Below are positions 3,053 to 61,947 of a DNA stretch of 64,000 nt, one piece after another. The DNA comes from a virus (lineage: Duplodnaviria > Heunggongvirae > Uroviricota > Caudoviricetes). Position 1 is the stretch's first letter. Each line of letters opens with the position of its first letter. Location of the stretch: the IMG/VR virus record IMGVR_UViG_3300028840_006985; one strand, 5' to 3'. A model generated the notes under the pieces. That model saw nothing but the letters and a program-made list of their open reading frames with translations. It was not told the origin of the DNA and did not search any database. The position numbers were made by a program, and so were the translations under genes.

Positions 3053-4360
3053 ATGGGAGGGAATATTTTCTTTTCCATTTTTTATAATGGAGGCAAATTG
3101 TCAGATCCTAAAATCGACATAAATTTGGCTAATAAAATTGTCGAAGTAGGACAAGAAGGAATTATTGATTTTTTAAATAGTGGTATATCTCCGGAAATGT
3201 TAAAAGGAGATGGTAAAAAAATTTTATTATTTATTTTAGATTTTTGGAAAAAGTATAACTCATTGCCTTCTTTTGAATTAATTAGCGACAATACGGGACA
3301 TAAGATAGAAATTGTTAATGAACCAGTTAAATATTGGCTTGACGAGATTAAAAAACGCGTTCTGTTTGAAGTATTAAAGGACGGGTTAGAGCCTGTTTTA
3401 AAGCATATGAATGATTATAAACCAGATCAGGCTTTTGAAAGCATTATGACATTAGGGCGAGAAATGTGGAATTGTTTACCAAACATTTCCAATATAGAGT
3501 CGATTTTTTCTATTGGTCCACGATTAAAAGAGTATTATTTCAGGATAAAAGAGGGTAAGCTTGGTGTTCCTTCTCCATGGCCAACATTAACATTGGCAAG
3601 TCTTGGGTGGTGGCCAGGCGATTTAATAGCATGTGTAGGTAGGCCGGCTACAGGCAAGACGTGGTGTATGTTATTATTATCACATGCGGCATGGGTTAAA
3701 GGATATAAGGTATTATTTGTTTGTACAGAAATGTCAAGGCTAAAAGTGGCGCAACGTTTTTTTGCAATACATTTAAAATATCCTGCTGACAATCTTCGAA
3801 AAGCAAAATTAGGATATTTTGAAGAACAAGCTTTTTTTGATAGTATTGATGAGTTGTTAGAAACGAAAGGGTTTTATGTAGTCGGTGATGATTATGAAGT
3901 TAATTTAGAAGTTGTTGAGGGAGCTATTTATAAAGTTAGTCCTGATTTTGTGGTTATAGATGGATTATATTTGGTAAAGATTCCTGGCTATTCTGATAGG
4001 ACTCAAAGAATGGCAATGGCGGTAAATGAGATAAAAAATTTAATAAAACGGTACGGGGTGGCTTGTGCTATTTCTTCACAATTTAATCGACAGGTTAAAG
4101 CTAACGATCCTAAGACGGCAGATCTTGAAAATATAGGTTTAAGTGATAATATAGGATGGGCCGCGGATGTAGCCATTGGGCTTATTAGAACAACAGACAT
4201 GAAACAAGACAAAAAGATGTTAATAAAATTGTTAAAATTACGAGAGGGCGAACCTAAGGATTTAGTGGTTAATTGGAGTTTTGATACAATGGATTTCAGT
4301 GAAATTATTGATCCAGGGGAAAATAATACAATCATTGATGAAGGAGAATCTCCTTTTTAA
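3053..4360 (+). CDS. dnaB: DnaB-like replicative DNA helicase
   Basis: RecA-fold helicase core GDLIACVGRPATGKTWCML (Walker A), as in DnaB GDLIIVAARPSMGKT. Walker B-like VVIDGLYLV and an SSQFNR motif follow. Confidence 0.8.
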   Translation: MGGNIFFSIFYNGGKLSDPKIDINLANKIVEVGQEGIIDFLNSGISPEMLKGDGKKILLFILDFWKKYNSLPSFELISDNTGHKIEIVNEPVKYWLDEIKKRVLFEVLKDGLEPVLKHMNDYKPDQAFESIMTLGREMWNCLPNISNIESIFSIGPRLKEYYFRIKEGKLGVPSPWPTLTLASLGWWPGDLIACVGRPATGKTWCMLLLSHAAWVKGYKVLFVCTEMSRLKVAQRFFAIHLKYPADNLRKAKLGYFEEQAFFDSIDELLETKGFYVVGDDYEVNLEVVEGAIYKVSPDFVVIDGLYLVKIPGYSDRTQRMAMAVNEIKNLIKRYGVACAISSQFNRQVKANDPKTADLENIGLSDNIGWAADVAIGLIRTTDMKQDKKMLIKLLKLREGEPKDLVVNWSFDTMDFSEIIDPGENNTIIDEGESPF

Positions 4361-7236: not shown

Positions 7237-7265
7237 TTGACACATCTGTCAGATGTGTTACACTA
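7237..7265 (+). promoter_or_regulatory. sigma70-like promoter (TTGACA, -10 TACACT) with a 19-bp perfect palindrome ACACATCTGtCAGATGTGT between the elements
   Basis: TTGACA at 7237-7242. Palindrome 7240-7258. Lies upstream of the SNF2 gene. Same architecture as the promoters at 12758, 32463 and 52162. Confidence 0.55.
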
Positions 7266-7311: not shown

Positions 7312-9222
7312 GTGAAAGTTGTTTATGAGGATGGTAAATTTAAATGTTTCTCATCATATGATGAGAAACATTTACCTAAAAGTGCAGGGTGGTGGTGGGA
7401 CTCCGCCAACAAATATTGGTTTACTAAAGAAAAACATAAGGCACTTTTATTAAAGGATTATTTCACTCCATCAGCCTCGTCTGAGGCCAATCGCTGTTTT
7501 CAACCCCAACCTCAGTGCAATTCAATTGCATACAATGACAAAATACCATGTCCTGAGGGAATAAGATATTTTCCATTTCAGGAAGAGGGAATAAGATATT
7601 CCCTTTCTCGAGAGGGGACCCTTAACGCGTCAGAGATGGGGTGTGGCAAATCAATAATGGCATTAGGTCTTATTAATATTGATGAGACTCTTCGGAATAT
7701 ATTAATTATTTGTCCAGCGTCTTTGAAAATCAATTGGCAACGCGAATCTGAGAAATGGTTGGTTAGACCATTTGAGATTTATGTTATAAATAATAATAAA
7801 ATTTCTCCAAATGTAAATGCAAATTTGATTATTGTCAATTATGATCGCCTAAAAGGCGATATTCTTAAATATATTATGAAACGCAATTGGGATTTATTAA
7901 TTGTAGATGAAGCGCATGCCCTGAAAAACGGGGCGGCACAGAGAACAAAAAAAATTCTGGGAGTGCCGCCTACATGGCGTTATCATAATGGAAGCTGGAA
8001 ACAGATTAAACCACGAACCTTTGGTGTAATCGACCAATGTCGAAAAAAGGTGTTCTTAACTGGAACACCTGTTCTTAACCGACCCGTCGAACTATTTTCG
8101 CTTATCTCAGCCTTGGATTCGAAAAATTGGAGATCACGTTCAAAATTCGAAACAAGGTATTGCAATGCTCATATGGGAAAATGGGGGTGGGATAACAAGG
8201 GTGCTAGCAATATTGACGAGCTTAACTTCAAACTTAGATCGTCGATTATGTTTCGAAAAACAAAGGCGGAGGTTTTGCCTGATTTGCCTCCCAAAACCAG
8301 ACAAATTATAGTTCTGCCTGGTGACAGTAAGGTGAAATCATTGATTAAAGAAGAAAAAAAATTAAAGATCGATTTTTCGGATATCGAGGCGTTAACACCT
8401 GTGTCAACGGAGTTTCAACAGTTGTCAGAATTGCGTAAACGGTTAGCAATTGCGAAATTGCCTATGATAATCGAACATATAGAGAATATATTAGAAGGTA
8501 CTGAGAAGATTGTTATTTTTGCGCATCACCATGAGGTCATCGATGCGCTTCATGGCCATTTTCAGGCATCGGTAAAATTAGACGGTAGGAACAGTTTGGA
8601 GGCTAAGCAAAAAGCAATCGATGCATTTCAAGATGGTCAAGCTAGGATTTTTATTGGAAGCATCCAGGCCGCTGGTGTTGGAATTACACTTACCGCGGCA
8701 TCGCATGCGGTATTTGCAGAATCGGATTGGGTCCCGGCGAATTTGAGCCAAGCTGAAGATCGTCTGAATCGAATTGGTCAAAAAAATGCTGTTTTGATCC
8801 AACATTTAGTAGTGGATGGCACGTTGGATGCTAGAATGGTTCAGATAGTAGTGGAAAAACAAAAAATTATTGATGGTATTGTGAAACCAGTAGAGTTGAT
8901 CGAACCTAAGAAATCCGAACCACCAAAATCTAAACCATCAAAATCTAAACCTGGTAATGGTAAAAAAAATAATAACATTACTAACGAGCGCAGGGAGGCA
9001 CTTTGTTGTGCATTGATTAGTTTAGCTGGAAAATGTGACGGCGCTCGTCAGCAAGACGGGTGCGGGTTCAATAAGCTGGATACTAATTTTGGTACTAGTT
9101 TAGCAAAGCGGGGATCAGAACGTCCCCTGACTGACGAGGAGTTTTTAGCTGCGTTGAAAATGATTAAGAAGTACAAACGTCAGATTGAACCTAATTTGTT
9201 TGATTTGATTTATAAAAATTGA
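7312..9222 (+). CDS. SNF2-family DNA helicase / translocase
   Basis: GTG start with AAGGAG RBS. Motifs: GCGKSIMALGLI (motif I), LLIVDEAHALKN (DEAH box), FLTGTPVLNRPVELFSLISAL, and C-terminal helicase motifs QAEDRLNRIGQ. Confidence 0.85.
   Translation: MKVVYEDGKFKCFSSYDEKHLPKSAGWWWDSANKYWFTKEKHKALLLKDYFTPSASSEANRCFQPQPQCNSIAYNDKIPCPEGIRYFPFQEEGIRYSLSREGTLNASEMGCGKSIMALGLINIDETLRNILIICPASLKINWQRESEKWLVRPFEIYVINNNKISPNVNANLIIVNYDRLKGDILKYIMKRNWDLLIVDEAHALKNGAAQRTKKILGVPPTWRYHNGSWKQIKPRTFGVIDQCRKKVFLTGTPVLNRPVELFSLISALDSKNWRSRSKFETRYCNAHMGKWGWDNKGASNIDELNFKLRSSIMFRKTKAEVLPDLPPKTRQIIVLPGDSKVKSLIKEEKKLKIDFSDIEALTPVSTEFQQLSELRKRLAIAKLPMIIEHIENILEGTEKIVIFAHHHEVIDALHGHFQASVKLDGRNSLEAKQKAIDAFQDGQARIFIGSIQAAGVGITLTAASHAVFAESDWVPANLSQAEDRLNRIGQKNAVLIQHLVVDGTLDARMVQIVVEKQKIIDGIVKPVELIEPKKSEPPKSKPSKSKPGNGKKNNNITNERREALCCALISLAGKCDGARQQDGCGFNKLDTNFGTSLAKRGSERPLTDEEFLAALKMIKKYKRQIEPNLFDLIYKN
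7514..7530. promoter_or_regulatory. internal copy (16/17 match) of the AGTGCAATTCAATTGCA palindrome inside the SNF2 coding sequence
   Basis: agtgcaattcaattgca at 7514-7530, encoding ...QCNSIA... Matches the sites at 25274, 39194 and 40316. Confidence 0.5.
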
Positions 9223-9559: not shown

Positions 9560-10057
9560 ATGATGGTAGAAAAAAAATCTAAAAGGGCTCAAAAAGCTTA
9601 TTTAAAAAAATATTATCGTGAAAATAGGGAAAGATTAAAAGAATATTATCGATTAAAATATCATAACAATCCAGAATATAAGAGGAAGACGATTGAGAAT
9701 GACGCCAAGCGACGAAAAAGGCGTCAAGAAAAGGAGAGGAGGAGAAGAAAAAAAAGGGGTATTCCTTATTTGTATGGCACATTGCCGGTTATTATTAATG
9801 GAAAAAGGTATTATCCTATGAGATTTTTATCAAATTTTATTGGCAAGTCACGACACACGATTAGAATGTGGGAAAAAAGAGGAATAATACCGTGTTATTG
9901 GTTCAAGGGTCGTAGATTTTATACGTATTCTTTAATAAAGGCGATTAAATATGCTGTTGACAGTTTAGATGGTGAGCAACTTAGAGTAAAAAAGGAAAGA
10001 AAGTTTAAAAGCAAGCTGATAGCCTATTTATCCGTGGAGAAAAGAATTGATTTTTAA
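9560..10057 (+). CDS. basic DNA-binding protein with an excisionase/MerR-like HTH
   Basis: N-terminal Lys/Arg-rich region. YYPMRFLSNFIGKSRHTIRMWEKRGIIP...GRRFY resembles Xis/AlpA-type HTH_17. Confidence 0.45.
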   Translation: MMVEKKSKRAQKAYLKKYYRENRERLKEYYRLKYHNNPEYKRKTIENDAKRRKRRQEKERRRRKKRGIPYLYGTLPVIINGKRYYPMRFLSNFIGKSRHTIRMWEKRGIIPCYWFKGRRFYTYSLIKAIKYAVDSLDGEQLRVKKERKFKSKLIAYLSVEKRIDF

Positions 10058-10068
10058 GGAAATCATAT

Positions 10069-10572
10069 ATGGGGTGGTATATATTAAGAGTAATTTCAGG
10101 AAGAGAAAAAAGGGTTAAAAATTTTTTAAATAGGAGGAAAGATAAAAATGTCATTAAACAAATAATGATACCTTCTGAGCTGGTAGTTGATTTTACTAAA
10201 AAAGCAAAGAGTAAAAATCATAGTCATAATCTTTATCCTGGTTATGTCTTCGTTGAAATAGATTTGAATCAACAAGTTATTGAATTTATTAAAAAGACTC
10301 CTGGCGTATTGAATTTTTTAAAAGATTTAAATGGATATCCAAAAGAGATGTCATCAAAAGACATTAATCAAATATTAAATATAAAACCGTCCTTGAGAGA
10401 AAAGAAGTTTACTAAAGGCGATGTAATTACTATTAAAAAAGGTCCTTTTAATGGGTTTAATGGGATAATAGATGATGCTAATAATCCTAGAAAGGTCATC
10501 ATTTTAGTAATGGTGTTTGGGAGACAAACACCGGTGGAATTGGATATCAATTTTATTGAAGAGGTTAAATAA
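10069..10572 (+). CDS. nusG: NusG-like transcription elongation/antitermination factor (NGN plus KOW)
   Basis: WYILRVISGREKRV, PGYVFVEI, KOW FTKGDVITIKKGPFNGFNGII and VFGRQTPVELDINFIEEV closely parallel E. coli NusG (IFGRATPVELDFSQVEK). Confidence 0.85.
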   Translation: MGWYILRVISGREKRVKNFLNRRKDKNVIKQIMIPSELVVDFTKKAKSKNHSHNLYPGYVFVEIDLNQQVIEFIKKTPGVLNFLKDLNGYPKEMSSKDINQILNIKPSLREKKFTKGDVITIKKGPFNGFNGIIDDANNPRKVIILVMVFGRQTPVELDINFIEEVK

Positions 10573-12757: not shown

Positions 12758-12795
12758 TTGACTCTGTTTAAAATACATCTTATAGAGTAAGATGT
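12758..12795 (+). promoter_or_regulatory. sigma70-like promoter (TTGACT, 17-bp spacer, TATAGA) with a palindrome ACATCTTA-tagag-TAAGATGT
   Basis: TTGACT at 12758-12763. Inverted repeat at 12775-12795 overlaps the -10. Lies upstream of ORF 12829. Confidence 0.5.
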
Positions 12796-21433: not shown

Positions 21434-21538
21434 AGTGGTTGGTATGCTATATTAATATAATGTAAACGAGACGGGTGTTTTTCATAGTGTAAATATAATA
21501 TTTGAGTTGATTGACGAATTTGTAAACAGGTAGTTTCT

Positions 21539-21852: not shown

Positions 21853-22371
21853 ATGAGCTTACAAACGCGGATAATATATCCATTTGTAGAAACATGGCAA
21901 GATTATCCTGATTCGGTTAGTAATGCGGTATTGGTTTATTTTGTTGGCTGTGACAATTATTGTAAAGGTTGTCATAATCATCAATTAATTAATTATTATA
22001 ATAATGATGCCAGGTCTATTTTTCTTGGTAATTTTATTGAAGACTTAAACAATATGTGCACAAGGTGTAATACTGATAAAGTAGTTTTAAGTGGCGGGGA
22101 TCCGTTGTATTGTAAAAATGTGGAATTTGTTAAAAGTTTTTTAGTTCAGAACAATTTATCAGTTACTATTTACACTGGTTATGATTATAGTTATGTAAAA
22201 CGATGTGAAATATCTGGTTTTGATTTTATAAAAGTTGGAAAATTTATTCCAGAAGAAAGTCAACCTCCAGCCAAGAGTGACACATTTCTTAGATTAGCAT
22301 CAAAAAATCAAAAGATTTATAATAAAGACCTCATTGAAGTTACAGACGGCAATGGGGTCTTTTTCTTTTAG
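21853..22371 (+). CDS. nrdG: anaerobic ribonucleotide reductase activating protein (radical SAM)
   Basis: VYFVGCDNYCKGCHN matches the NrdG CxxxCxGCxN cluster (E. coli SGCVHECPGCYN). Size 172 aa. Sits immediately upstream of nrdD. Confidence 0.85.
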   Translation: MSLQTRIIYPFVETWQDYPDSVSNAVLVYFVGCDNYCKGCHNHQLINYYNNDARSIFLGNFIEDLNNMCTRCNTDKVVLSGGDPLYCKNVEFVKSFLVQNNLSVTIYTGYDYSYVKRCEISGFDFIKVGKFIPEESQPPAKSDTFLRLASKNQKIYNKDLIEVTDGNGVFFF

Positions 22372-22381
22372 GAGTCAACAT

Positions 22382-24811
22382 ATGAACACCTCTTCAACTC
22401 TGTCTGAATTTGTTTCTAATCCAACAACAACTAGAACAACTACAAATATTACAAATTCTTTAGTACAGTCTTTAACAAGAAAATACAAATTAGGATATGA
22501 TCTTTGGGATATAGTACAAAAAATAATGGCTATTCATGGGTTATCAAATGATAAGTTTGATTTTGTTGGTAATTTAAACAAGGTTTTGTGTAACAGATTA
22601 AATGATGTGAGCATTGATGACAATTCAAATAAGGTTGAAAAAACGTTTGAGGGATTAATACAGGAAGTTGTATGTCCTATTAAAAAATCAGTTGGTTATG
22701 ATTTTTTATATCAAACAATGCGAAAAATATATGGAAAGGAGGAAGCTAAAAGATTAAGCGGGGAGTTGTATGACTTTTCTTTATCATTAAATGATTCAAC
22801 TAAGATATTAATTCCTTACTGTTATTCTTTTAATGCATCTAATATTATATTAAATGGTAGAAAATTTGGTCAATTATATTCTAATCCACCTAAAAGGATC
22901 GAGTCGTATATAGCATGTTTAAATGAAACTATTCATCAAATGTCTCATCATGTCGCTGGAGCTTTAGCTGTTTCTACAATTTTTATAGATTTTTGTCATA
23001 TTTTATTAATAAAAGAAAAAATACCTTATTATGATATTATAAATAATATGGCGGTTCGTAAGAGAATAGAAAACGCCTTTCAAATGTTTGTACATTCGGT
23101 AAATCATTTATCTAGAAACAGCATTGAATCACCTTTTTCTAATATTTCAATCTTTGATAGACCCAAATTGAGAGCATTAATTGAGGGTATGAAATGGTAT
23201 TTTAATGATTTAAATACGAATAATGTGATTGAATATATTATAGCAATTCAAGATATATTTTTAGATTTTTTTGACAAAGGTGATCCATCTAAAAATGGAT
23301 TGCTTTATAGATTTCCTATTTGTACAGTCAATATTTCAAAGAAAAAAAAGGACAATGAATGGGTAGTCGAGGATGATAAGTTTCTTGAGTCAATAGTAAA
23401 AAGAGATATTTTTAGGTATAACATTTTTTCTAGTGAAGGAATAAAAATTGCTAGTTGTTGTTTTAGGGGAGATCAGCAAGTTGAAACAATGATTAATAGA
23501 GATGGAGTGATTTATGCAGATTTACCAACCTTTAAAGAGTTAATAGACGATATAGATGATTGTAACGATCGTAGAGTATATTATAATGGGTGGAAACATT
23601 TTGATAAGGTTAAAATAGGATATAATGATGATTGGATTGAGATTGTTTGTATGGATGGAAAAAAAATAACTTGTACTAAAGATCATTACTTTCCTTGTTT
23701 AAGTTATGAGGAAGGATTAATTAGATATTATGAATATAATAAAAGGGCAGAAGATTTAACAAGTAATGATTATTTAAAAACTTGTTGTAGTTTTATAAAA
23801 ATTAAAAAAGTTAATAAGGTTCAAAACAATGAAGGAGTTGCTTATTGTATTAATATTAGAAATGGTGAACCGTACTTTACATTGGCTAATGGAATTATAA
23901 CTCATAATTGTCGTCTTATTAACGACACAGAGATGTATGAACTAGGTGGGACAATTAATTCATTCGGTGGATCAGCAATATCAATGGGATCTCATCGTGT
24001 AGTTACAATAAATATTAATAGAATTGCTCTTGAGGCTAAAACTTTAGATGATTATTATGCGATTTTAAAGGAGAGAGTTAGAGATACGGCAAAAATTTTA
24101 AAAGCCCATAAAGAATTAATAAACATGACTACAAAGGAAGGCATTCAGATGTTTATTAAAATGGGTTGGATAGCGATGAGTAGGATGTTTTCAACGTTTG
24201 GAATATTGGGAATAGTTGAAGCAAAGGAAAATTTGGAAAAAAAATTTGGAAATAATGGTGATTATATTGAAGAAACTCTTAAATTAATGAATAAATTAGT
24301 TTTTGAATATTCAAAAAAATATGGTATATATGGCAATATTGAACAAATACCTGGCGAAAGTATGGCTGTTCGATTTGCTGAGGTAGATCGGTTATTATTT
24401 GGAGACGAAGCAATACCACAAAAAATATATTCAAATCAGTTTGTGCCTTTATGGGAAAATTCAACGATTTGGGAAAGGATGGCTGAAGATGGCAAATACA
24501 ATCAATTGATTACTGGGGGCGGAATTGTACATGTGCAGGTTGGAGAGAAAACAACCTCACAGCAGTCGAAAAAAATTATCAAATATGCTATTAAGGTAGG
24601 CAATGAGCATTTTGCTTTAAATGCGATCTATACGGAGTTTCAAGATGGTTCATTTATGCTTGGCAAGTATAAAATTAATCCTCAATCTGGCAGTCCTGCT
24701 AGGGAATATTATACAAGAGTTGTTGGTTTTTTTACTCCTGTTGGTAGTTGGAATAAGGTGAGACGAGAATGGGAGTTTCCACAACGAAAGTTCAACGGAG
24801 TAGACGTATGA
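22382..24811 (+). CDS. nrdD: anaerobic (class III) ribonucleoside-triphosphate reductase, intein-containing
   Basis: Start moved to the ATG at 22382, which follows AGGAG. A C-terminal glycyl-radical-like YYTRVVGFF motif. Adjacent to nrdG. No C-terminal Zn ribbon is seen. Confidence 0.7.
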   Translation: MNTSSTLSEFVSNPTTTRTTTNITNSLVQSLTRKYKLGYDLWDIVQKIMAIHGLSNDKFDFVGNLNKVLCNRLNDVSIDDNSNKVEKTFEGLIQEVVCPIKKSVGYDFLYQTMRKIYGKEEAKRLSGELYDFSLSLNDSTKILIPYCYSFNASNIILNGRKFGQLYSNPPKRIESYIACLNETIHQMSHHVAGALAVSTIFIDFCHILLIKEKIPYYDIINNMAVRKRIENAFQMFVHSVNHLSRNSIESPFSNISIFDRPKLRALIEGMKWYFNDLNTNNVIEYIIAIQDIFLDFFDKGDPSKNGLLYRFPICTVNISKKKKDNEWVVEDDKFLESIVKRDIFRYNIFSSEGIKIASCCFRGDQQVETMINRDGVIYADLPTFKELIDDIDDCNDRRVYYNGWKHFDKVKIGYNDDWIEIVCMDGKKITCTKDHYFPCLSYEEGLIRYYEYNKRAEDLTSNDYLKTCCSFIKIKKVNKVQNNEGVAYCINIRNGEPYFTLANGIITHNCRLINDTEMYELGGTINSFGGSAISMGSHRVVTININRIALEAKTLDDYYAILKERVRDTAKILKAHKELINMTTKEGIQMFIKMGWIAMSRMFSTFGILGIVEAKENLEKKFGNNGDYIEETLKLMNKLVFEYSKKYGIYGNIEQIPGESMAVRFAEVDRLLFGDEAIPQKIYSNQFVPLWENSTIWERMAEDGKYNQLITGGGIVHVQVGEKTTSQQSKKIIKYAIKVGNEHFALNAIYTEFQDGSFMLGKYKINPQSGSPAREYYTRVVGFFTPVGSWNKVRREWEFPQRKFNGVDV
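23459..23908 (+). mobile_element. mini-intein (150 aa, no homing-endonuclease domain) inserted in NrdD
   Basis: Begins CFRGDQQVETMI (block A, Cys1) and ends ...NGIITHN, followed by +1 Cys (CRLINDTEM). Extein junction reads IKIASC|CRLIND. Confidence 0.7.
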
Positions 24812-25080
24812 CGAATGAGAAAATTTTTACTATTTTGAATAAATATTCAAAATTTTTAAATAAGAAAGGATATAAATCTCGTGCGATTAAACAGAAATTA
24901 TATTATCCTAACGATATTGACGCAATGGGGCATGTTTTAGTAATGATTCCTAGGATAAAGCAATTTATTAAAGAGGAGAGACGAGAAAAAGCTTTTCGTT
25001 GGCTGGGGTTTGTTCAAGGTATTTTATGGTCTTATGGAGAGTATACAATAGAAGAATTACGTGATCATAATAAAATATGA
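24808..25080 (+). CDS. hypothetical protein (start trimmed to MTNEKIF)
   Basis: ORF track 24769..25080 overlaps the nrdD 3' end. The in-frame ATG at 24808 overlaps the nrdD stop. Confidence 0.4.
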   Translation: MTNEKIFTILNKYSKFLNKKGYKSRAIKQKLYYPNDIDAMGHVLVMIPRIKQFIKEERREKAFRWLGFVQGILWSYGEYTIEELRDHNKI

Positions 25081-25274
25081 GAAAGAGGCCGAATAAAAAA
25101 ATATACAATCTTGGAATTACCTGGTGTTTAAAATGTGAAAAGATGACTAATGATAATATATGGAAAAAAATAAAAGAAGGAATTTTCGTTGGTCAGTGCA
25201 ATTGGTGCAAGACAAGAATGGTTGCCTATATGTATGAAAAAGGTAAAATTGTTGCTGACAAAATAAATGATTGA
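25077..25274 (+). CDS. small zinc-ribbon protein
   Basis: CLKCEKM...CNWCKTRM. Confidence 0.4.
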   Translation: MRKRPNKKIYNLGITWCLKCEKMTNDNIWKKIKEGIFVGQCNWCKTRMVAYMYEKGKIVADKIND

Positions 25275-25292
25275 GTGCAATTGAATTGCACT
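25274..25292. promoter_or_regulatory. palindrome AGTGCAATTGAATTGCACT immediately upstream of the RBS of ORF 25305
   Basis: Reverse-orientation copy (central G) of the motif at 39194 and 40316. Followed by AAGGAG and then ATG. Confidence 0.6.
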
Positions 25293-25304
25293 TAAGGAGA
25301 TTTT

Positions 25305-25565
25305 ATGGCTGCGGTCATTAGAAAAGTACCCTCATTATATGGATTAATTGAGGTGGAGCGAGACGAAGATCCGCCTCGAATGCTTAATGTGGGGGTCATT
25401 ATTAATGGCGGATATATGGTAGAGAATTTTGTCAATATGAGTATTTTACCGTTAGAATTGCAACAGATGATTAGAAATGCTCTTTTTGATAGAAGATCTA
25501 TAGATAATAGGATTGACAAAAAGACAAAACAAGAACTTTATGAGGCTTCTAAAAAGAAAGAATAA
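25305..25565 (+). CDS. hypothetical protein
   Basis: ORF track. Strong RBS AAGGAG. Confidence 0.55.
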   Translation: MAAVIRKVPSLYGLIEVERDEDPPRMLNVGVIINGGYMVENFVNMSILPLELQQMIRNALFDRRSIDNRIDKKTKQELYEASKKKE

Positions 25566-27319: not shown

Positions 27320-27727
27320 ATGACTAGTAATAAAAAAGAATTATTACAAGAAATGGTTGAGGTTTTTTCCGATGCTACAAAATTTCAAAAGAAGCTTAAA
27401 GAATTTAAAGGAAGAATAGAAAATGTTGACAAACGATTAGCATTGGATATTGATGGTATTTTGAACGGCATAGAACAGTTAGTGGATTCATGTTGTACTC
27501 GGACGGAAGCATGTTTGCATAAAGACGAAGATATGGAAAAAATAATTAAGAGGTTAGACAGGAAAGAGTCAGGAGAAGACACTCTTAGCCCTGACTTTAT
27601 GATTCATTCTGTGAATCATAAAAATGGACGATTGGATGACGAGATTGAAGCTTTAAGGACTGCAGTTAATCTTGCAGAAGATAGTCTTTTTTATTATATT
27701 ATTCCAGAGGTTAAAGGAACTTGTTAA
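27320..27727 (+). CDS. hypothetical protein
   Basis: ORF track. Confidence 0.45.
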   Translation: MTSNKKELLQEMVEVFSDATKFQKKLKEFKGRIENVDKRLALDIDGILNGIEQLVDSCCTRTEACLHKDEDMEKIIKRLDRKESGEDTLSPDFMIHSVNHKNGRLDDEIEALRTAVNLAEDSLFYYIIPEVKGTC

Positions 27728-28046
27728 TATGTCAGATCAAAAATTCAAAAAAAACGATATTGTAAAGTATATTTTTAACGGAAGCAAGGGTAAAATAGTT
27801 GATCATAGAATTATTGGTGGAACTAATGAGTATTTAGTTAAATTTAAAAAATATATTCCTGATTGGGTTGGTGAGCCTTACTTAGAAAAATGTGAATGCG
27901 ACTGTAATAATGATGATGATAATGATGGATGTGGTACTTGCAATGTATATATTGGCAAAGATTCAACGGATTATGAATTTAGAATAAAAGATGGTATAGT
28001 TCGGCATATATTGGCAAAGATTCAACGGATTATGAATTTAGAATAA
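27672..28046 (+). CDS. hypothetical protein whose 3' end is altered by a 59-bp tandem duplication
   Basis: ORF track. The true start may be the MSDQKF ATG near 27729. The C-terminus reads through the duplicated copy in a shifted frame. Confidence 0.4.
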   Translation: MQKIVFFIILFQRLKELVNMSDQKFKKNDIVKYIFNGSKGKIVDHRIIGGTNEYLVKFKKYIPDWVGEPYLEKCECDCNNDDDNDGCGTCNVYIGKDSTDYEFRIKDGIVRHILAKIQRIMNLE

Positions 28047-28066
28047 AAGATGGTATAGTTCGGCAT
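27949..28066. repeat. perfect 59-bp tandem duplication (2 copies)
   Basis: atattggcaaagattcaacggattatgaatttagaataaaagatggtatagttcggcat at 27949-28007 and again at 28008-28066. Confidence 0.9.
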
Positions 28067-30431: not shown

Positions 30432-31121
30432 ATGAGTAAAGAAATTTGGGTTAAATTAAGCGGCTATAAGTACGAATATGAAGTATCCAATTATGGTTAT
30501 GTTAAATATTTAAAAAAAGGTAATTATGTTTATTTAACCAGAAGAGGAGGACAAAAAAGGGTTTTCTATACTTTTGTTTTGCAAGATGGAAAAACAAAAA
30601 ATGTCTCAGTAGGCAAATTGATATTGACAACTTTTAAAGATCCAGGGTGTCAAGGATTACATGCTGCATATAAAGATGATGATTTTCGCAATTGTCATCT
30701 TGATAACTTATACTGGACGCTTCCATCTGGATTGACCGAACAAAATGTGGTTGATCTTAGAGAGGAGCAACGCAAGGGAGTGTCTTTAAAAGATTTATCA
30801 AAAAAATATGGTTTACATTTTCGTAGTATTAAAGACATAATTGACGGTCGCGTGTGGCCAACAGCGGGGAAGCATTTAAAAAAAGATAAGGAGGTTAAAG
30901 CTAAGCAAGAGGTTAAAGCTAAGCAAGAGGTTAAAGCTAAGCAAGAGGTTAAAGTTAAGCAAGTTAAGCAAAAAACTAACAAAGAATTAAAGAGGACAAA
31001 AAAGGAAATAAAAACTTTTTTAGTTTCTTCTGGTGAAAGAAGTCTTGTTATGGCAAGAATAGCCAAAGTTGAAGAGATGTGTGATGGTATTTTTCGTGAT
31101 GGAAATACTTATTTGTTTTAA
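30432..31121 (+). CDS. HNH homing endonuclease-like protein (NUMOD4 plus HNH_3) with a KAKQEV tandem repeat
   Basis: N-terminal WVKLSGYKYEYEVSNYGYVK (NUMOD4). NCHLDNLYW (HNH_3). An 18-nt repeat gaggttaaagctaagcaa x3 at about 30888-30960. Confidence 0.5.
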   Translation: MSKEIWVKLSGYKYEYEVSNYGYVKYLKKGNYVYLTRRGGQKRVFYTFVLQDGKTKNVSVGKLILTTFKDPGCQGLHAAYKDDDFRNCHLDNLYWTLPSGLTEQNVVDLREEQRKGVSLKDLSKKYGLHFRSIKDIIDGRVWPTAGKHLKKDKEVKAKQEVKAKQEVKAKQEVKVKQVKQKTNKELKRTKKEIKTFLVSSGERSLVMARIAKVEEMCDGIFRDGNTYLF

Positions 31122-32462: not shown

Positions 32463-32493
32463 TTGACTTATATCTGCAGATGTGCAATATTAA
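32463..32493 (+). promoter_or_regulatory. sigma70-like promoter (TTGACT ... TATTAA) with the palindrome ATCTGCAGAT between the elements
   Basis: TTGACT at 32463-32468. Palindrome 32472-32481. -10-like TATTAA at 32488-32493. RBS AAGGAG lies before ORF 32533. Confidence 0.5.
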
Positions 32494-33478: not shown

Positions 33479-34177
33479 ATGGTAGAATGGAAGCCGTTGC
33501 GGGGCTATGAGTTATATCTAATATCATCAAATGGGGATATTAAAGATTTAATGACTGATCGATATCTGGTTGCGAGTTATCAAGAAAGTGGTCCAAGTGT
33601 ATTGCTTTTTAGTGAGAATGGATATACTCGCTGTAAAGTAGCAGATTTGGTTTTAAAAACTTTTTTGCGTCTCCCCGAAAAAGATGAGATTCTCTTTTTT
33701 TTTGATGGTAATTGTAATAATGTAAATATTTCTAATCTTTCATGGAAAAAAAAGAAAGAGGAAGTTGTTAAAAAAAAGCAGCAAATTGCCGATGATTATG
33801 TCTGTGCAATCAAATGTTCATTTTATTCGGGGAGCCGAAAGATTTCGCAATTAGCAGATTGTTATGATTTGGAAATTGAAGACATAAAAGATATTTTATT
33901 TAATCCTTGTTGGAACTATATTGATATTCCTGGAACGAAGATAATCGATAATAATGGTAAAAAAATTCCAGATAGAAAATTGCCTGAATTGGCGGTCTTT
34001 CTTAGAAAATGTAATAAGTATTATAAAAAACGGAAAATAGACAAAGGAGATATTGAAGAGGGTAAAAACGAAGAAGAAGAATATGATGATTATGAAAAAG
34101 AACTCCCTGAAATGTCATTAAGAGAATTTAGGAACTTTATAAGAAATAAAAATGGAGATGATAATGAAAAAAAATGA
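33479..34177 (+). CDS. second NUMOD4/HNH-like homing-endonuclease-like protein
   Basis: WKPLRGYELYLISSNGDIKD (NUMOD4-like) and GNCNNVNISNLSW (HNH_3-like). Acidic C-terminus. Confidence 0.35.
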   Translation: MVEWKPLRGYELYLISSNGDIKDLMTDRYLVASYQESGPSVLLFSENGYTRCKVADLVLKTFLRLPEKDEILFFFDGNCNNVNISNLSWKKKKEEVVKKKQQIADDYVCAIKCSFYSGSRKISQLADCYDLEIEDIKDILFNPCWNYIDIPGTKIIDNNGKKIPDRKLPELAVFLRKCNKYYKKRKIDKGDIEEGKNEEEEYDDYEKELPEMSLREFRNFIRNKNGDDNEKK

Positions 34178-34679
34178 CAATTTTATGTTAAAGAAGCAAA
34201 TAATTAAATATTTAGAACAAAAGCAGACTGCCAGTATTCATGATATTGTGATTAATACAGGTCAAGTTATACATAACATAAGAAAAGTACTTGAAGAATT
34301 AATTTTTTTAGGTTTTTTAAGAAAGGATAATAAACAAACAGATGCTTATGATCTATGTTTAGGAAGAAACTATAAAAAGAATCAATCTTGTTATAGCTTA
34401 GTAAAATATCCTCAAAGTGATATTGATTTATTTCCAAAAAAGATAAAATACGTAGCCAGTAAAGTACAAGATCTTATCCAAGAACGCGGAGAAATGAGCA
34501 TACCTCAAATTTCTATTGAGTTGAAAATTTCTCAACATTATGCAGGTCAAGTTTTGAAGAAATTAGAACAAAAAGGAAAGCTTGTTAGAGTTGTTAAGCC
34601 ACAACGAACAGAAGAGGAGGTAAGAAGGAGGGTTAGAACAGTGGGAAGAAAAATGAGTTTTTTTTCCGTAAAGTGTTAA
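34152..34679 (+). CDS. putative DNA-binding protein with two winged-helix-like segments
   Basis: IIKYLEQKQTASIHDIV...LEELIFLGFLRK, and a second segment IPQISIELKISQHYAGQVLKKLEQKGKLVRV. Confidence 0.35.
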   Translation: MEMIMKKNDNFMLKKQIIKYLEQKQTASIHDIVINTGQVIHNIRKVLEELIFLGFLRKDNKQTDAYDLCLGRNYKKNQSCYSLVKYPQSDIDLFPKKIKYVASKVQDLIQERGEMSIPQISIELKISQHYAGQVLKKLEQKGKLVRVVKPQRTEEEVRRRVRTVGRKMSFFSVKC

Positions 34680-38856: not shown

Positions 38857-39180
38857 ATGAAAAAAATAGAGTCTGGTGAAACATTTGTAACAATAGCAAT
38901 TATTATTGCAAGTATAATAATTGCTATTGTATTAACGTTTCAACATGTGATAGATTCACAAATAAATTTAGATATAGCATTTCAATCGGCTCATCAGTTT
39001 TCAAAGAAAATAGAGGATATTGCAGATATCAATTGTGTAGCGCAAGATAGCGATAGTGATGGCTATTGTTCATGTAGCCTTATTAAAAAAGATGGAAGTG
39101 TAATTTCTCTGGAATGTGGCTGTCGGCAAAAATTTTATGGTTGCAAACTGGCAACATTCAAGGTTGGGGAAATAGATTAG
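38857..39180 (+). CDS. membrane-anchored hypothetical protein
   Basis: N-terminal TM segment TFVTIAIIIASIIIAIVLTF. C-terminal Cys pairs. Confidence 0.5.
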   Translation: MKKIESGETFVTIAIIIASIIIAIVLTFQHVIDSQINLDIAFQSAHQFSKKIEDIADINCVAQDSDSDGYCSCSLIKKDGSVISLECGCRQKFYGCKLATFKVGEID

Positions 39181-39193
39181 GGAAGAAGTCGCC

Positions 39194-39212
39194 AGTGCAA
39201 TTCAATTGCACT
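39194..39212. promoter_or_regulatory. palindrome AGTGCAATTCAATTGCACT about 45 nt upstream of ORF 39258
   Basis: Perfect 8-bp arms around a central C. Identical to the copy at 40316. Confidence 0.6.
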
Positions 39213-39257
39213 GGTATAAGGGGAAAGAGCTATACGATTTAGAGTTAGGAGAGGAAG

Positions 39258-40055
39258 ATGAGCATTAAGAGTTTTAAGGACATTATGAACCTTCATGGGC
39301 TAATAGGCCAAGACGAATCTGATTGGTATCAGCACCAAAACGGCGGCGGGTGGATAAAAAAGACAGCATATGTTAACAAGACAGTATATGTTGGGCCTTA
39401 TGCAATAGTTTATGGTAAGGCCTTAGTATCTGGTAAGGCAAAAATTAATGGGACGGCTCAGATTTATGGAACGGTTCGAATTTGGGATGAAGTAAAAGTT
39501 TATGGCAATGCAATAGTAGGTGGAAATGCGGTACTGTTTGACAATGTAGAAATTTATGACAATGCAAAAATTTATGATAATGTAGTAGTAGTTGATGAGG
39601 CAATGGTAGCCGGCGAAGCTATCATATATGATAATGTTCGAGTATATGATAATGCGCGAATTTATGGCAAAGCAAGGGCATTTGACGATGTACATGTAGG
39701 TAATAATGCAAGAGTATACGAGAATGCAGTATTATTTCATAAGACAAAAATTCGTGGCAACGCATGTGTTTATGGCAACGCATGTGTTAAGGGTTCTAGC
39801 ATTATTCGTGGTTATGTTCAAATTTGTGGTGAGGCAGAAGTTGTGGATAAAATTTATGAGGGAAATATCATAGTTTCAACCGCGACATATAAGGGATTGA
39901 AGACTAAAGACAATCAAAGTAAAAAAATTGAATCCAATTTAACACCTGAAGTACCTAAATATAATTCATCATGTCCTATTTGCGGGTCTCCGGCGCAAGA
40001 TTTAATATTTAAAATTTACTGTTCTAAGACAGGATGTCAAAATTATCATCCGTAG
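39258..40055 (+). CDS. left-handed beta-helix (hexapeptide-repeat) protein with a conserved N-terminal region and C-terminal zinc ribbon; paralog A
   Basis: At least 20 consecutive hexads [IV]-[YF]-[GD]-N-A-x. N-terminus MNLHGLIGQDESDWYQHQNGGGW. C-terminus SSCPICGSPAQDLIFKIYCSKTGCQNYHP. Confidence 0.7.
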   Translation: MSIKSFKDIMNLHGLIGQDESDWYQHQNGGGWIKKTAYVNKTVYVGPYAIVYGKALVSGKAKINGTAQIYGTVRIWDEVKVYGNAIVGGNAVLFDNVEIYDNAKIYDNVVVVDEAMVAGEAIIYDNVRVYDNARIYGKARAFDDVHVGNNARVYENAVLFHKTKIRGNACVYGNACVKGSSIIRGYVQICGEAEVVDKIYEGNIIVSTATYKGLKTKDNQSKKIESNLTPEVPKYNSSCPICGSPAQDLIFKIYCSKTGCQNYHP

Positions 40056-40315
40056 GAGAAAGAAATGGTTATGCGTAAGAAAAAGTTCCCATCCGAGATT
40101 GATAAAATATTTCCTCTTTTTTTCTGGACTAAGTGTGATAAATGTTTTTGTGAATTCCGTTGAGAGAAAATGTGGAGAATTAAGAAATTTGAAGATCACA
40201 GTTGTAAGGTGTTTTTTTATTTTTGTGTCGTTAATTATTATATTTGTACAAAATGTGCACCTACTCTTCTAGAACTTACAAAAATAAGACGTTGTTTATG
40301 CATATAATATTAATT

Positions 40316-40334
40316 AGTGCAATTCAATTGCACT
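40316..40334. promoter_or_regulatory. palindrome AGTGCAATTCAATTGCACT immediately upstream of the RBS of ORF 40359
   Basis: Followed by gacacAAGGAGG and the ATG at 40359. Confidence 0.6.
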
Positions 40335-40358
40335 GACACAAGGAGGAAAGAAGAGAAA

Positions 40359-41141
40359 ATGGATTTTAGTCAGGTTATGAACCTTCATGGGCTAATAGGT
40401 CAAGACGAATCTGATTGGCATCAACACCAAAACGGCGGCGGGTGGGTACAGAATATAGCTAGAGTTGAGCCTGCAGCATATATTGGATCCGAGGCAATAG
40501 TTTATGGTCATGCGCGAATTTATGGCAAAGCGGAGGTGTACAATCAAGCTCGAGTATTCAACAGTGCACAAGTACATGGTCATGCTCAAGTATTTGATAA
40601 TGCATGGGTTTACGGAAATGCGGCAATATTTGATAATGCGAGAGTATTTGGATTTGCATCGGTTGACGATAATGCGAGAGTATATGGTGATGCAATAATA
40701 CGTGACAATACACAAGTATTTGGAAATGCGGAAGTTTATGATCATGTACAGATTGAAGAAAATGCAAGAATTTATGGTAATGCGCGAATTTATGGCCATG
40801 CAATGGTTTGTGATAATGCACAAGTTTGTGATAATGCACAAGTTTATGGCAATGCAAGGGTCGGCGGTTCTAGCAGTATTGAAGAATATGTTGAAGTTTG
40901 TGGTTGTATAAAAATTGCAGACAATAAAAGATACAGGGGAAATATTGTAATTACTACTACTAATGATGATAAAAAGCGTACTCTTCTTATTAAAAAATCT
41001 ACAGATGGACAGCCTAATCCGAAGAAAAAAATTGAATTATCTCAATATAATTCATCATGTCCTATTTGTAAATCACCAGCACAAGATTTAATATTTAAAG
41101 TTTACTGCTCCAAGGTGGGATGTCAAAATTATCATCTGTAA
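40359..41141 (+). CDS. left-handed beta-helix (hexapeptide-repeat) protein, paralog B
   Basis: Start trimmed to MDFSQ (AAGGAGG RBS). Ends are about 90-96% nt-identical to paralog A, while the central repeats have diverged. C-terminus SSCPICKSPAQDLIFKVYCSKVGCQNYHL. Confidence 0.7.
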   Translation: MDFSQVMNLHGLIGQDESDWHQHQNGGGWVQNIARVEPAAYIGSEAIVYGHARIYGKAEVYNQARVFNSAQVHGHAQVFDNAWVYGNAAIFDNARVFGFASVDDNARVYGDAIIRDNTQVFGNAEVYDHVQIEENARIYGNARIYGHAMVCDNAQVCDNAQVYGNARVGGSSSIEEYVEVCGCIKIADNKRYRGNIVITTTNDDKKRTLLIKKSTDGQPNPKKKIELSQYNSSCPICKSPAQDLIFKVYCSKVGCQNYHL

Positions 41142-44266: not shown

Positions 44267-44364
44267 AAGAAAACCTAATCAAGAAAACCTAATCAAGAAA
44301 ACCTAATCAAGAAAACCTAATCAAGAAAACCTAATCAAGAAAACTTAATCAAGAAAACCTAATA
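44267..44364. repeat. 14-bp tandem repeat aagaaaacctaatc x7 (intergenic)
   Basis: Seven head-to-tail units with one variant (aagaaaacttaatc). Confidence 0.9.
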
Positions 44365-45430: not shown

Positions 45431-45677
45431 TGAATCAGCAATGTATAGTTGTTCTGAGGTTATAGTAGGATTTTTCGACGATTTTAATCTTGACAATGCT
45501 CAGAATGTATTAAAACAATTACCATATTTTGTAAAGATTTTAAACACATATGAACTTATTCTTGCGGTTCATGTAAAAGTTGTGGAAAATAGGGTAATAG
45601 ATTTTGCAGAGAATGCGAAAAAATTAAAATGCATAAAGTATGTAAATTTGAATTACTTTGTAAAACCTACTTTATAA
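45423..45677 (+). CDS. small hypothetical protein
   Basis: ORF track. Confidence 0.35.
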   Translation: MNNESAMYSCSEVIVGFFDDFNLDNAQNVLKQLPYFVKILNTYELILAVHVKVVENRVIDFAENAKKLKCIKYVNLNYFVKPTL

Positions 45678-45713
45678 AACCTACTTTATAAAACCTACTT
45701 TATAAAACCTACA
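45661..45713. repeat. 14-bp tandem repeat taaaacctacttta x about 3.8, sharing an AAAACCTA core with the 44267 repeat
   Basis: Spans the stop codon of ORF 45423..45677 and continues downstream. Confidence 0.85.
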
Positions 45714-47861: not shown

Positions 47862-48033
47862 AATGAGTCGTCTTTTTTTATTAGTTGCAATATTTGGAAT
47901 ATTTTGGTCTTTAGATTTTATTGATCAATCAGATTTTATTGATAGACAGTCAATATTGATAGAGGAATAAAATGAGTATAGCATTTACAATAGTGTTATT
48001 TTTTATGATTGGTATGGCGCTTCGATGTATGAT

Positions 48034-48194
48034 GGATTCTTAAAAAATGCTCCTGGACAAAATCTACCGTCCATGAGTTTTAAATTCCGAGCCTTCTAAA
48101 ATCCCGATCTAATAAAATCAAGCACTTACAAGAATGGGCTCTTAAAAAATGCTCCTGGACAAAATCTACCGTCCATGAGTTTTAAATTCCGAGC
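48034..48194. repeat. two about 59-bp near-identical direct repeats separated by a 43-bp spacer (intergenic)
   Basis: ...tcttaaaaaatgctcctggacaaaatctaccgtccatgagttttaaattccgagc at 48034-48092 and again at 48136-48194. Confidence 0.85.
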
Positions 48195-51155: not shown

Positions 51156-51377
51156 ATGTCAGCTAGTTATAACGGATTGTTGGTTACTTTTAAAAAAGAT
51201 TTATGCGAAGAACATGTTGAAACAATAATGCAAGCGATAAAATTAATAAAAGATGTCATAGATGTTAGACCTGTCGACGATGAAGGTTACAATGTTAGCG
51301 TATCCAGGATACAGGCTACAAGAGAATGTAGTAACGATCTTCATAATCTATTAGAAAAGTGGAGAAAAAGGTGGTGA
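51156..51377 (+). CDS. small hypothetical protein
   Basis: ORF track. RBS AAGGAGG. Confidence 0.45.
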   Translation: MSASYNGLLVTFKKDLCEEHVETIMQAIKLIKDVIDVRPVDDEGYNVSVSRIQATRECSNDLHNLLEKWRKRW

Positions 51378-52130
51378 AATCGTTCCTATCTTTTTAATAC
51401 ATTCCTTAATTTGACCACTAATACATTCTTTTTCAGTTTCAGATAGGGCATCTTCATATAAACTACGCAAAGTTATAATAGCGTTTTTATAATATTCGAT
51501 ATCGACTTTATTATTTAAAAATGTAGATGGTTCTTTTTGTATTTGATTGTTGTTATTGTTTGGTTTTTTAGAAGGAACGTTAACACCTTTAATAAAGGTT
51601 TTCATCTTTTTTATAATATCTTTATCATTAATAATATCTGATGGGTCAATAATTGATTTATCTTTTGAAGATAAGTTATAAAATGCTCCAATTATAGAAT
51701 CATTATTATTTATAGAGGGTAAATAATCCTTAATGACAGGTCCAATAGTTTGATGATCTTTAAGAGCTTGAACTAATTGAGGAAAATAATTCCATAAACT
51801 AGTTTTGGAACTATTTCTTATGTCGAACTGAATAACACTTTCAATCCATTGAAATAGATTTTTAACATTAATTGAAAATTTGGGACTAGTGCTTTGACGT
51901 CGATGACCGTCGCTCCCGTGAGGTCGATATTTAATGTATTCGTAAGTTTTCCAATTTTGATTTTTAAATGGTTTTAATTGTCGTATTTCTTGATAATGAC
52001 ATTTGGCTATTCCTAGTGTGTTACATATTTCCATTGCCATGAGCCAAAATTCATTATCATATTTAATGACATCTAATTTTTTAGATTTATTCAAGGTTAG
52101 AACAGCTATTCTTTTAACTTCTTCATCCAT
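51351..52130 (-). CDS. KilA-N/Bro-N-like DNA-binding (anti-repressor-like) protein; the only convincing minus-strand gene
   Basis: N-terminus FWLMAMEICNTLGIAKCHYQEIRQL resembles the Bro-N/KilA-N pattern. Asn-rich low-complexity linker. Convergently overlaps ORF 51156..51377 by 27 nt. Confidence 0.35.
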   Translation of the reverse strand: MDEEVKRIAVLTLNKSKKLDVIKYDNEFWLMAMEICNTLGIAKCHYQEIRQLKPFKNQNWKTYEYIKYRPHGSDGHRRQSTSPKFSINVKNLFQWIESVIQFDIRNSSKTSLWNYFPQLVQALKDHQTIGPVIKDYLPSINNNDSIIGAFYNLSSKDKSIIDPSDIINDKDIIKKMKTFIKGVNVPSKKPNNNNNQIQKEPSTFLNNKVDIEYYKNAIITLRSLYEDALSETEKECISGQIKECIKKIGTISPPFSPLF

Positions 52131-61900: not shown

Positions 61901-61916
61901 CCCATAGCTTAAAGGT

Positions 61917-61947
61917 GGGGTTCGGCTCTGCCCGGACCTCATCTTTT
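61917..61947 (+). terminator. putative rho-independent terminator after the capsid gene
   Basis: GGTTCGG-ctctgc-CCGGACC hairpin followed by TCATCTTTT. Confidence 0.4.

Follow-up and report, generated by a model that had tools for sequence, protein, structure and literature searches.

The nutL and nutR sites of phage lambda carry near-identical hairpins that differ by one loop base, nutR being intercistronic, and the boxB hairpin consists of a 5-bp stem with a GNRA-like pentaloop. In DNA, the operator OB of KorB (TTTAGCSGCTAAA) and the parS site of ParB are dispersed, invariant palindromic sites. Repeated stem-loops are also described for T4-type phages, where each PeSL element is a composite of a sigma70-type early promoter (-35/-10) and a stem-loop and where many copies are found in hyperplastic regions (PMC4122927), and LoaP acts via a small conserved leader hairpin with a UNCG tetraloop (PMC12691694). 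Here we describe a 19-nt palindrome from a stretch of 64,000 nt (the window), which is IMG/VR record IMGVR_UViG_3300028840_006985 (Caudoviricetes) and belongs to a metagenomic contig of ~175.5 kb (ENA ERZ27256783 k141_746074). A reading of the letters alone (the original prediction) had noticed the palindrome four times in the window. The DNA examined amounts to 74 kb, comprising the window and 9.4 kb upstream of it (L066). The palindrome is a real, phage-specific and probably functional cis element, and we tentatively read it as a stem-loop of the mRNA that affects how the cistron behind it is translated or how stable its message is.

Copies and placement of the 19-nt palindrome

A pattern search with the 19-mer AGTGCAATTSAATTGCACT, allowing up to three mismatches, revealed exact copies of AGTGCAATT[C/G]AATTGCACT at positions 25274, 39194 and 40316. 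The first of these (site 1; 25274..25292, + strand) reads AGTGCAATTGAATTGCACT with a central G and is the exact reverse complement of the others (site 2, 39194..39212, and site 3, 40316..40334, both + strand), which read AGTGCAATTCAATTGCACT with a central C. At site 2, the perfect palindrome extends to 23 bp (CCAGTG...CACTGG). A degenerate copy that matches at 17 of 19 positions (AGTGCAATTCAATTGCATA; 7514..7532, + strand) is located inside the linker of an SNF2 helicase gene, at about codon 67 of the open reading frame (ORF) 7312-9222, and has GCATA in its right arm in place of GCACT. Similarly, a fifth copy (17/19; AGTGCAATTCAATTTCATT) was found 2.9 kb upstream of the window, at L066:6464; it is also intragenic, within a gene for 329 aa, and its reading frame differs from that of the 7514 copy. 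In dinucleotide-preserving shuffles, searched with the same tolerance, a mean of 0.08 matches was obtained and none of 100 shuffles reached four. Three exact copies and the 17/19 copy at 7514 are therefore beyond chance, as had been claimed in the original prediction, and the positions and contexts that it gave for the four copies were borne out, including the one within the SNF2 coding region. Half-site searches returned additional AGTGCAATT 9-mers at 25195 and L066:3662, which appear codon-driven, show no further match and were set aside, and a covariance model built from the five copies found no further diverged members in the window, in the upstream 9.4 kb or in the closest relative. Right after the degenerate copy, at 7555-7616, the SNF2 gene contains a 30-nt imperfect tandem duplication that encodes a repeated EGIRY motif and holds a 7-bp hairpin of its own (GGGAATAagaTATTCCC).

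Intergenic DNA makes up 7.9% of the window and holds all three perfect copies, each of which ends 1-50 nt ahead of a start codon; the motif is thus not randomly placed with respect to genes. In each case, a stop codon is found 0-14 nt upstream and an AAGGRG motif, resembling a Shine-Dalgarno (SD) sequence, 1-5 nt downstream. When ±100 nt around the sites were aligned, the 19-mer alone was common to site 1 and the other sites, and similarity beyond it was confined to the duplicated YdcK 5' region of 39194 and 40316. Since the flanks are unrelated, the palindrome is a discrete 19-nt element and not a piece of the larger mobile repeat that had been considered as an alternative.

At site 1, ORF 25077-25274, which encodes a 65-aa Zn-ribbon protein, ends in a TGA (25272-25274) whose final base is also the first of the palindrome. 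An AAGGAG (25294..25299, + strand), read as the SD from the sequence, starts 1 nt past the palindrome, and the 30-nt intergenic gap consists wholly of palindrome and SD. The downstream cistron (25305..25565, + strand, ATG at 25305) encodes an 86-aa ORFan, for which no family match was obtained when the window ORFs were scanned nearly in full with Pfam, PHROG and NCBIfam; a single-sequence structure model of this protein was unusable (predicted local distance difference test score 52.7). The 256-aa neighbour gene of site 1 is also an ORFan. At site 2, the palindrome starts 14 nt past the stop codon (39178-39180) of ORF 38857-39180. An orphan SD-like AAGGGG (39218..39223, + strand), 5 nt past the palindrome, aligns with the SD of the paralog at 40359, and the SD actually used is at 39247-39254 (+ strand), ahead of a gene for a YdcK-type beta-solenoid protein (paralog 1; 39258..40055, + strand). 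At site 3, a Zn-ribbon-like ORF (40065-40307) ends at the TAA 40305-40307 upstream of the palindrome, and an AAGGAGG (40340..40346, + strand), likewise read as the SD from the sequence, follows 5 nt past it; the downstream cistron encodes the second YdcK-type beta-solenoid protein (paralog 2; 40359..41141, + strand, ATG at 40359). The small Zn-ribbon ORFs that precede sites 1 and 3 showed no significant similarity as paralogs. ORF 40065-40307 (CxxC...CxxC) contains a single in-frame TGA and may be a pseudogene or a case of read-through or recoding.

The YdcK paralogs are 45% identical at the protein level. The DNA upstream of both genes can be aligned, and over the initial ~80 nt of coding sequence it is ~95% identical, synonymous sites included (39258-39340 versus 40359-40440), which indicates that sites 2 and 3 stem from one tandem duplication. 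The similarity of these 5' ends suggests gene conversion or a constraint at the nucleotide level. Both paralogs also keep a C-terminal CPIC...C..C motif. Between sites 2 and 3, the untranslated region (UTR) from palindrome to start codon has diverged by substitutions and an indel of ~20 nt, but the palindrome is still identical at 19 of 19 positions, arguing for purifying selection on the palindrome. The original prediction had proposed a small regulon that includes beta-helix paralogs. Two of the sites do precede YdcK-like beta-solenoid genes, but there are only two independent placements; because two of the three sites derive from a single gene duplication, the putative regulon, one ORFan plus a duplicated pair of YdcK-like genes, is thin.

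Possible stem-loop in the message or operator in the DNA

On the sense strand, eight core pairs and two to three flanking pairs are predicted to form a stem of 10-11 bp closed by a 3-nt loop, in place of the 6-bp stem with a 5-nt loop that had been proposed before. At site 1 (25271..25295, + strand), the predicted stem-loop has 11 bp (UUGAGUGCAAU/AUUGCACUUAA), a 3-nt loop and a folding energy of -10.7 kcal/mol, its minimum free energy fold has a z score of -3.1, and its 3' arm takes in the first two A of the SD. At site 2 (39191..39215, + strand), 11 bp and a 3-nt loop are predicted with -15.4 kcal/mol, starting 11 nt past the stop codon, and at site 3 (40314..40336, + strand) 10 bp including a U·G pair, again with a 3-nt loop, with -9.8 kcal/mol. 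Bases of the otherwise unrelated flanks add 3, 3 and 2 pairs to the helix, respectively (UUG/UAA, GCC/GGU and UU/GA). When G·U pairs of the + strand were admitted, such runs were rare in comparison to all window positions, with P = 0.015 for a sum of at least 8 and P = 0.005 for at least 2 at all sites. With Watson-Crick pairs only, the runs were 0, 2 and 0 and not significant, and the same values were obtained for the equivalent on the minus strand (A·C), again not significant.

Across the five copies, 89% of the cells pair, three outer pairs vary on both sides, and the covariation score was 0.227 as compared to 0.119 in shuffles (6/500). Both decayed copies (7514 and L066:6464) share a C18-to-T change by which a G·U pair is retained. 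Stable simple hairpins are scarce in the intergenic DNA: only six were found, three of them being the motif, one the terminator that follows the capsid gene and one a promoter palindrome. As half of these hairpins are the motif, it is not a generic feature of the phage. Also, at two of the three sites the gap is too short for a recognisable promoter and none was seen.

Beyond the copies, their identity and placement, the fold and the strand-specific extension of the helix, which are shown here, we infer that RNA is the active form, that a protein binds it and that expression is affected. In a polycistronic sense-strand transcript, the palindrome would fold into the 10-11 bp stem with its 3-nt loop. 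Placed in the short stretch that separates a cistron's stop codon from the AAGGRG of its successor, the stem would determine how well the downstream message is translated and/or how stable it is; the messages concerned are those of the 86-aa ORFan and the two YdcK-like paralogs. A core that is identical while its surroundings are unrelated points to a single trans-acting factor for all sites; it would recognise the hairpin like a translational operator or a nut/boxB-type site. Alternatively, the role may be purely structural: the hairpin could form a barrier where a processed or late transcript begins, or it could couple translation with termination at the preceding ORF.

Several observations weigh against a stem-loop in the mRNA. 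Within the 19-nt core the stem is invariant and shows no covariation, which is expected for recognition of double-stranded DNA and not required of an RNA helix. The 9-1-9 dyad symmetry reaches a single central base and includes positions that cannot pair in a hairpin, and the centre is C:G in all five copies, in either orientation, which is neutral for a DNA-bound dimer but alters the RNA loop (UCA versus UGA). The statistics of the flanking pairs are post hoc and come from three sites, two of which are related by duplication. Masking of the SD is not consistent, as the hairpin abuts it at site 1 but is 5 nt off at site 3 and, at site 2, 34 nt away from the SD in use, and the 74 kb examined yielded no RNA-binding protein. 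Finally, homologous copies are absent elsewhere, so that cross-genome covariation cannot support the RNA helix and the arguments for RNA as well as for DNA rest on five copies in one phage.

Recognition of the 9-1-9 dyad by a dimeric DNA-binding protein of the phage or its host is the main, though somewhat less likely, alternative. At 40316, such an operator would cover about +1 to +19 relative to a TATAATAT-type promoter and obstruct RNA polymerase there; at 25274 and 39194, it would form a roadblock to read-through transcription or control promoters that were not recognised. Consistent with this, the dyad is perfect to one central base pair, 19 of 19 positions are invariant at three sites, and the central C:G pair occurs in either orientation, as a symmetric dimer predicts. 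The weaker intragenic copies (7514 and L066:6464), in which one half-site is perfect, are compatible with auxiliary sites. The phage also encodes candidate binders, namely a winged-helix protein (34152-34679; FeoC/MarR/Rrf2-like) and a protein with a weak MerR-like helix-turn-helix (HTH) domain (9560-10057), whose gene is immediately upstream of that for a NusG paralog. However, nothing was found to link either of these proteins to the palindrome, no HTH gene adjoins any of the sites, two of the three perfect copies (25274 and 39194) are without a promoter-like element, the gap at site 1 being filled by palindrome and SD, and the strand-specific, G·U-dependent flanks that extend the helix are left unexplained by a site in double-stranded DNA.

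The promoter that an operator at site 3 would control rests on TATAATAT, a candidate -10-like element at 40303..40310 (+ strand) that ends 5 nt before the palindrome; the palindrome is thus in a position like that of lacO1, and transcription from this promoter would start at about the first palindrome base. The TAA stop codon 40305-40307 falls within this copy of the motif. On the + strand, intergenic TATAATAT occurs at 21494, 25609, 40303, 57101 and 62570, 40-56 nt before five start codons, among them those of the structural genes 57157 and 62623, and it may be a -10 element of late or middle promoters, analogous to T4 TATAAATA. Overall, it is not significantly enriched in the window (19 found versus 12.5 expected), which weakens the case for an operator. 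A role of the palindrome itself as -35 or -10 element was rejected, as no hexamer at suitable spacing was seen on reading the sequence.

The sigma70-like promoters of this phage (aTTGACw-17-TAnnCT) carry a different palindrome in their spacer. Members of this second family, ACACATCTG-T-CAGATGTGT, ACATCTtatagagtAAGATGT and ATCTGCAGATGTG, are found at 7240-7258, 12775-12795 and ~32470-32484, preceding the SNF2 gene, gene 12829 and gene 32533, and look like promoter-overlapping operators for a repressor of early genes. DNA operators of this phage therefore seem to look different from the 19-nt palindrome and to sit elsewhere, which again counts against an operator. Both forms that had been envisaged at the outset, a dyad in DNA and a hairpin in a 5' UTR, thus stay viable, and the tests lean towards RNA through the G·U flank pairs that exist on the sense strand only. 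We slightly favour the mRNA stem-loop over the DNA operator, giving placement and strand-specific flank pairing a little more weight than symmetry.

A stable hairpin in an intercistronic position could also serve as an intrinsic terminator or attenuator or be processed by RNase III, and Panganiban and Whiteley (1983) reportedly described RNase III sites of related sequence in the intercistronic gaps of early mRNAs from SP82 and T7. Termination, or attenuation as suggested in the original prediction, was rejected because no U-tract follows any copy on the + strand, unlike in the genuine terminator past the capsid gene (61911-61946), which combines a GC-rich stem with a U-run. The only terminator-like call at the element (40334-40316) is on the minus strand, which is gene-less there. 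RNase III substrates usually comprise about two helical turns, that is ~20 bp or more of double-stranded RNA, and the uninterrupted helix of 10-11 bp is at or below this usual minimum, making the proposed RNase processing doubtful as far as RNase III is concerned. Of all explanations weighed here, a terminator, attenuator or RNase III site is the least probable, and we give it very little credence.

Hardly more probable is a role of the palindrome in recruiting, as an RNA hairpin, a NusG paralog of the phage for processive antitermination of the LoaP or nut type. The hairpin in the nascent RNA would load the factor onto RNA polymerase, and transcription would continue through the downstream genes; this would be a self-contained system in a large phage with T4-type capsid from a low-GC anaerobe, with its own specificity for a triloop on a palindromic stem. 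The phage does encode a full-length NusG paralog with NGN and KOW domains (10069-10572; Pfam NusG, 7e-20), which scores below the housekeeping cutoff (NCBIfam nusG, 125.9 bits; cutoff 135.7). It likewise remains below the cutoffs of the LoaP model (89.5 bits; cutoff 125) and of the RfaH and UpxY models, which it also matches. LoaP provides a precedent, as it binds a small conserved leader hairpin of only two operons (PMC12691694). However, the UCA/UGA loop is neither a UNCG tetraloop nor a GNRA-like pentaloop, there are almost no downstream intrinsic terminators to override, the NusG gene is 15-30 kb distant, and nothing was found to link the NusG protein to the motif.

Origin, distribution and genomic surroundings

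The palindrome might owe its copies to recombination or to a mobile process, as a short repeat of the REP type (repetitive extragenic palindrome) or a cassette boundary of the PeSL type. It would then mark junctions of shuffled cassettes in a variable region of small ORFs and would exert at most a generic hairpin effect, with no dedicated regulator. Exact identity in unrelated contexts, with one copy inverted, implies physical copying rather than convergence, and the decayed copies inside two genes, in different frames, resemble relics of insertions. The perfect copies lie within or at the edge of the ORFan-rich region of 25-52 kb, those at 39194 and 40316 are direct repeats that bracket one YdcK cassette, and a TnpB-type fragment is found 0.2 kb upstream of the copy at L066:6464. 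For shuffling mediated by repeated regulatory stem-loops, there is a precedent in the PeSL elements of T4-type phages (PMC2839356, PMC4122927). We nevertheless consider this origin unlikely, as there are only five copies in 74 kb, without a conserved promoter part or a flanking tetranucleotide, no Y1/RAYT transposase was detected among the ORFs scanned in the examined part, and the retrieved assemblies of the phage, all 100% identical, document no rearrangement at the sites. Moreover, the four substitutions of the decayed copies all fall in the last 5 positions, for which we estimate a chance of (5/19)^4, or ~0.005, so that the decay is not random, and the palindrome was kept while the UTR between palindrome and start codon of the paralogs diverged. 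The TnpB-type fragment is a 123-aa ORF (L066:5876-6247, ~3.1-3.5 kb upstream of the window) with a zinc-ribbon (TNB) domain of the TnpB/Cas12f type; it ends 0.2 kb before L066:6464 and appears to be a truncated remnant of the IS200/IS605 family.

Outside this phage, an exact-motif scan of IMG/VR gave no matches. In the species-representative genomes of GTDB, 12 single matches in unrelated taxa were obtained, where about 9 are expected by our own chance estimate, and a scan of metagenomes gave 39 single matches, none of them related to the window by blastn. These exact-match scans rule out a widespread exact repeat, but not a degenerate motif of a host transcription factor. The closest relative found (L023) has an NrdD that is 71% identical and syntenic replication genes, and it contains neither the motif at up to three mismatches nor a match to the covariance model nor a repeated palindrome of its own. 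YdcK homologs elsewhere are at most 53% identical and in one phage are accompanied by repeated promoters, not by hairpins. No Rfam family matched anywhere in the window at gathering thresholds, and permissive E-value scans around the three sites returned only sub-threshold chance matches (e.g., to miRNA and snoRNA models). The element matches no described family.

The window has a G+C content of 32.8%, and its genes are on the + strand except for one (51351-52130), located just ahead of the terminase gene, which shows a weak Bro-N match. A replication and nucleotide module encodes a DnaB-type helicase (435-aa ORF 3053-4360), primase, SNF2 helicase, UvsX/RecA, SSB, clamp, a Dam-like methylase, NrdG and an intein-containing NrdD. 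In the latter, an anaerobic ribonucleotide reductase (22334-24811), the intein-like insert gives a weak Intein_splicing match and is absent from NrdD of the closest relative. The region from 25 to 52 kb contains mainly small ORFan genes, and a T4-type head module comprises terminase, Portal_T4, prohead protease, Gp23 capsid protein and gp13. Megablast gave nothing for either locus among annotated phage records, no annotated phage is close, and the capsid protein is at most 32% identical to any record. The other retrievable assemblies of the phage are all 100% identical to the window across the palindrome sites.

Several other repeats were noticed in the window. A perfect (AAACAG)x22 hexamer array at 8-140 appears to be two units shorter in the ENA assembly of the same phage, so that either the array is polymorphic in length or the assemblies differ. 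Intergenic 14-bp tandem arrays, AAGAAAACCTAATC (6.9 copies) and TACTTTATAAAACC (4.2 copies), at 44267-44363 and 45654-45712, respectively, are iteron-like, lie within the largest non-coding stretches of the window and could mark a replication origin or regulatory region. Two copies of a 61-nt sequence (48032-48092 and 48134-48194), 97% identical and spaced by 102 nt, are located in a 367-nt non-coding gap ahead of gene 48229 and may be a duplicated small RNA or regulatory module. A 59-bp tandem duplication at 27947-28066 (2.0 copies, 100% identical) runs from the 3' end of ORF 27672-28046 into the spacer behind it and looks very recent. The region of small ORFs also encodes two NUMOD4-domain proteins that are homing-endonuclease-like (30432-31121 and 33479-34177).

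Comparison with described systems

If functional, the palindrome would place an ORFan and two YdcK-like beta-solenoid genes in a small control circuit, post-transcriptional or transcriptional, of a large-phage lineage that is otherwise uncharacterised, and the 19-nt sequence could be used as bait, giving an experimental handle on the cognate regulator. As the element is short, has few copies and is of a familiar type, it does not by itself change the understanding of phage gene regulation; its main value is that of an annotation feature and of a clean test case for distinguishing palindromes that act at the level of DNA from those that act at the level of RNA.

In comparison with mobile or shuffled repeats, the palindrome resembles PeSL elements of T4-type phages (PMC2839356, PMC4122927) in being a repeated stem-loop at the boundaries of small ORFans in a variable region that could supply homology for cassette shuffling. 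In contrast to PeSL, conservation is limited to the 19-nt palindrome, which has an SD rather than a promoter behind it, and only three perfect and two decayed copies were found. With REP sequences it shares the form of a short palindrome just past stop codons within operons, in both orientations, and possible effects on stability or translation of the mRNA, but REPs are imperfect, 20-40 nt long, number tens to hundreds per genome and go together with a RAYT transposase, features that were not seen in the 74 kb. As in the LoaP system (PMC12691694), a NusG paralog is present in the genome and a small conserved hairpin precedes a few gene sets; here, however, the loop is not UNCG, the phage protein is under the LoaP cutoff and no downstream terminators are evident.

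Among DNA sites, the palindrome is similar to OB of KorB and parS of ParB: it is a perfect dyad of odd length, centred on an S base pair, and its identical copies are scattered across tens of kb, some of them within genes. It also shares the dyad symmetry of operators bound by dimeric repressors, and one of its copies is at about +1 of a candidate promoter. It differs from such DNA sites in that no gene for ParB or an HTH protein is adjacent, that a promoter can be recognised at no more than one of the three perfect sites and that the flanks pair in a strand-specific manner with G·U.

The mRNA stem-loop that we favour is comparable to the operator of T4 gene 43, the coat-protein hairpin of MS2 and boxB of lambda nutL/nutR, each of which is a short hairpin in a 5' UTR or intercistronic gap by the SD or after a small ORF. 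Like the phage operator and boxB hairpins, it is present on the sense strand in a few identical or near-identical copies per genome. Unlike them, it has a 3-nt UCA/UGA loop and a stem that is palindromic to its centre, and no cognate RNA-binding protein was identified; with a 3-nt loop on an 8-11 bp stem it does not have the boxB of a lambda-type nut site. In summary, the element most likely belongs to a familiar class, as a regulatory hairpin beside an SD or as a dyad operator.

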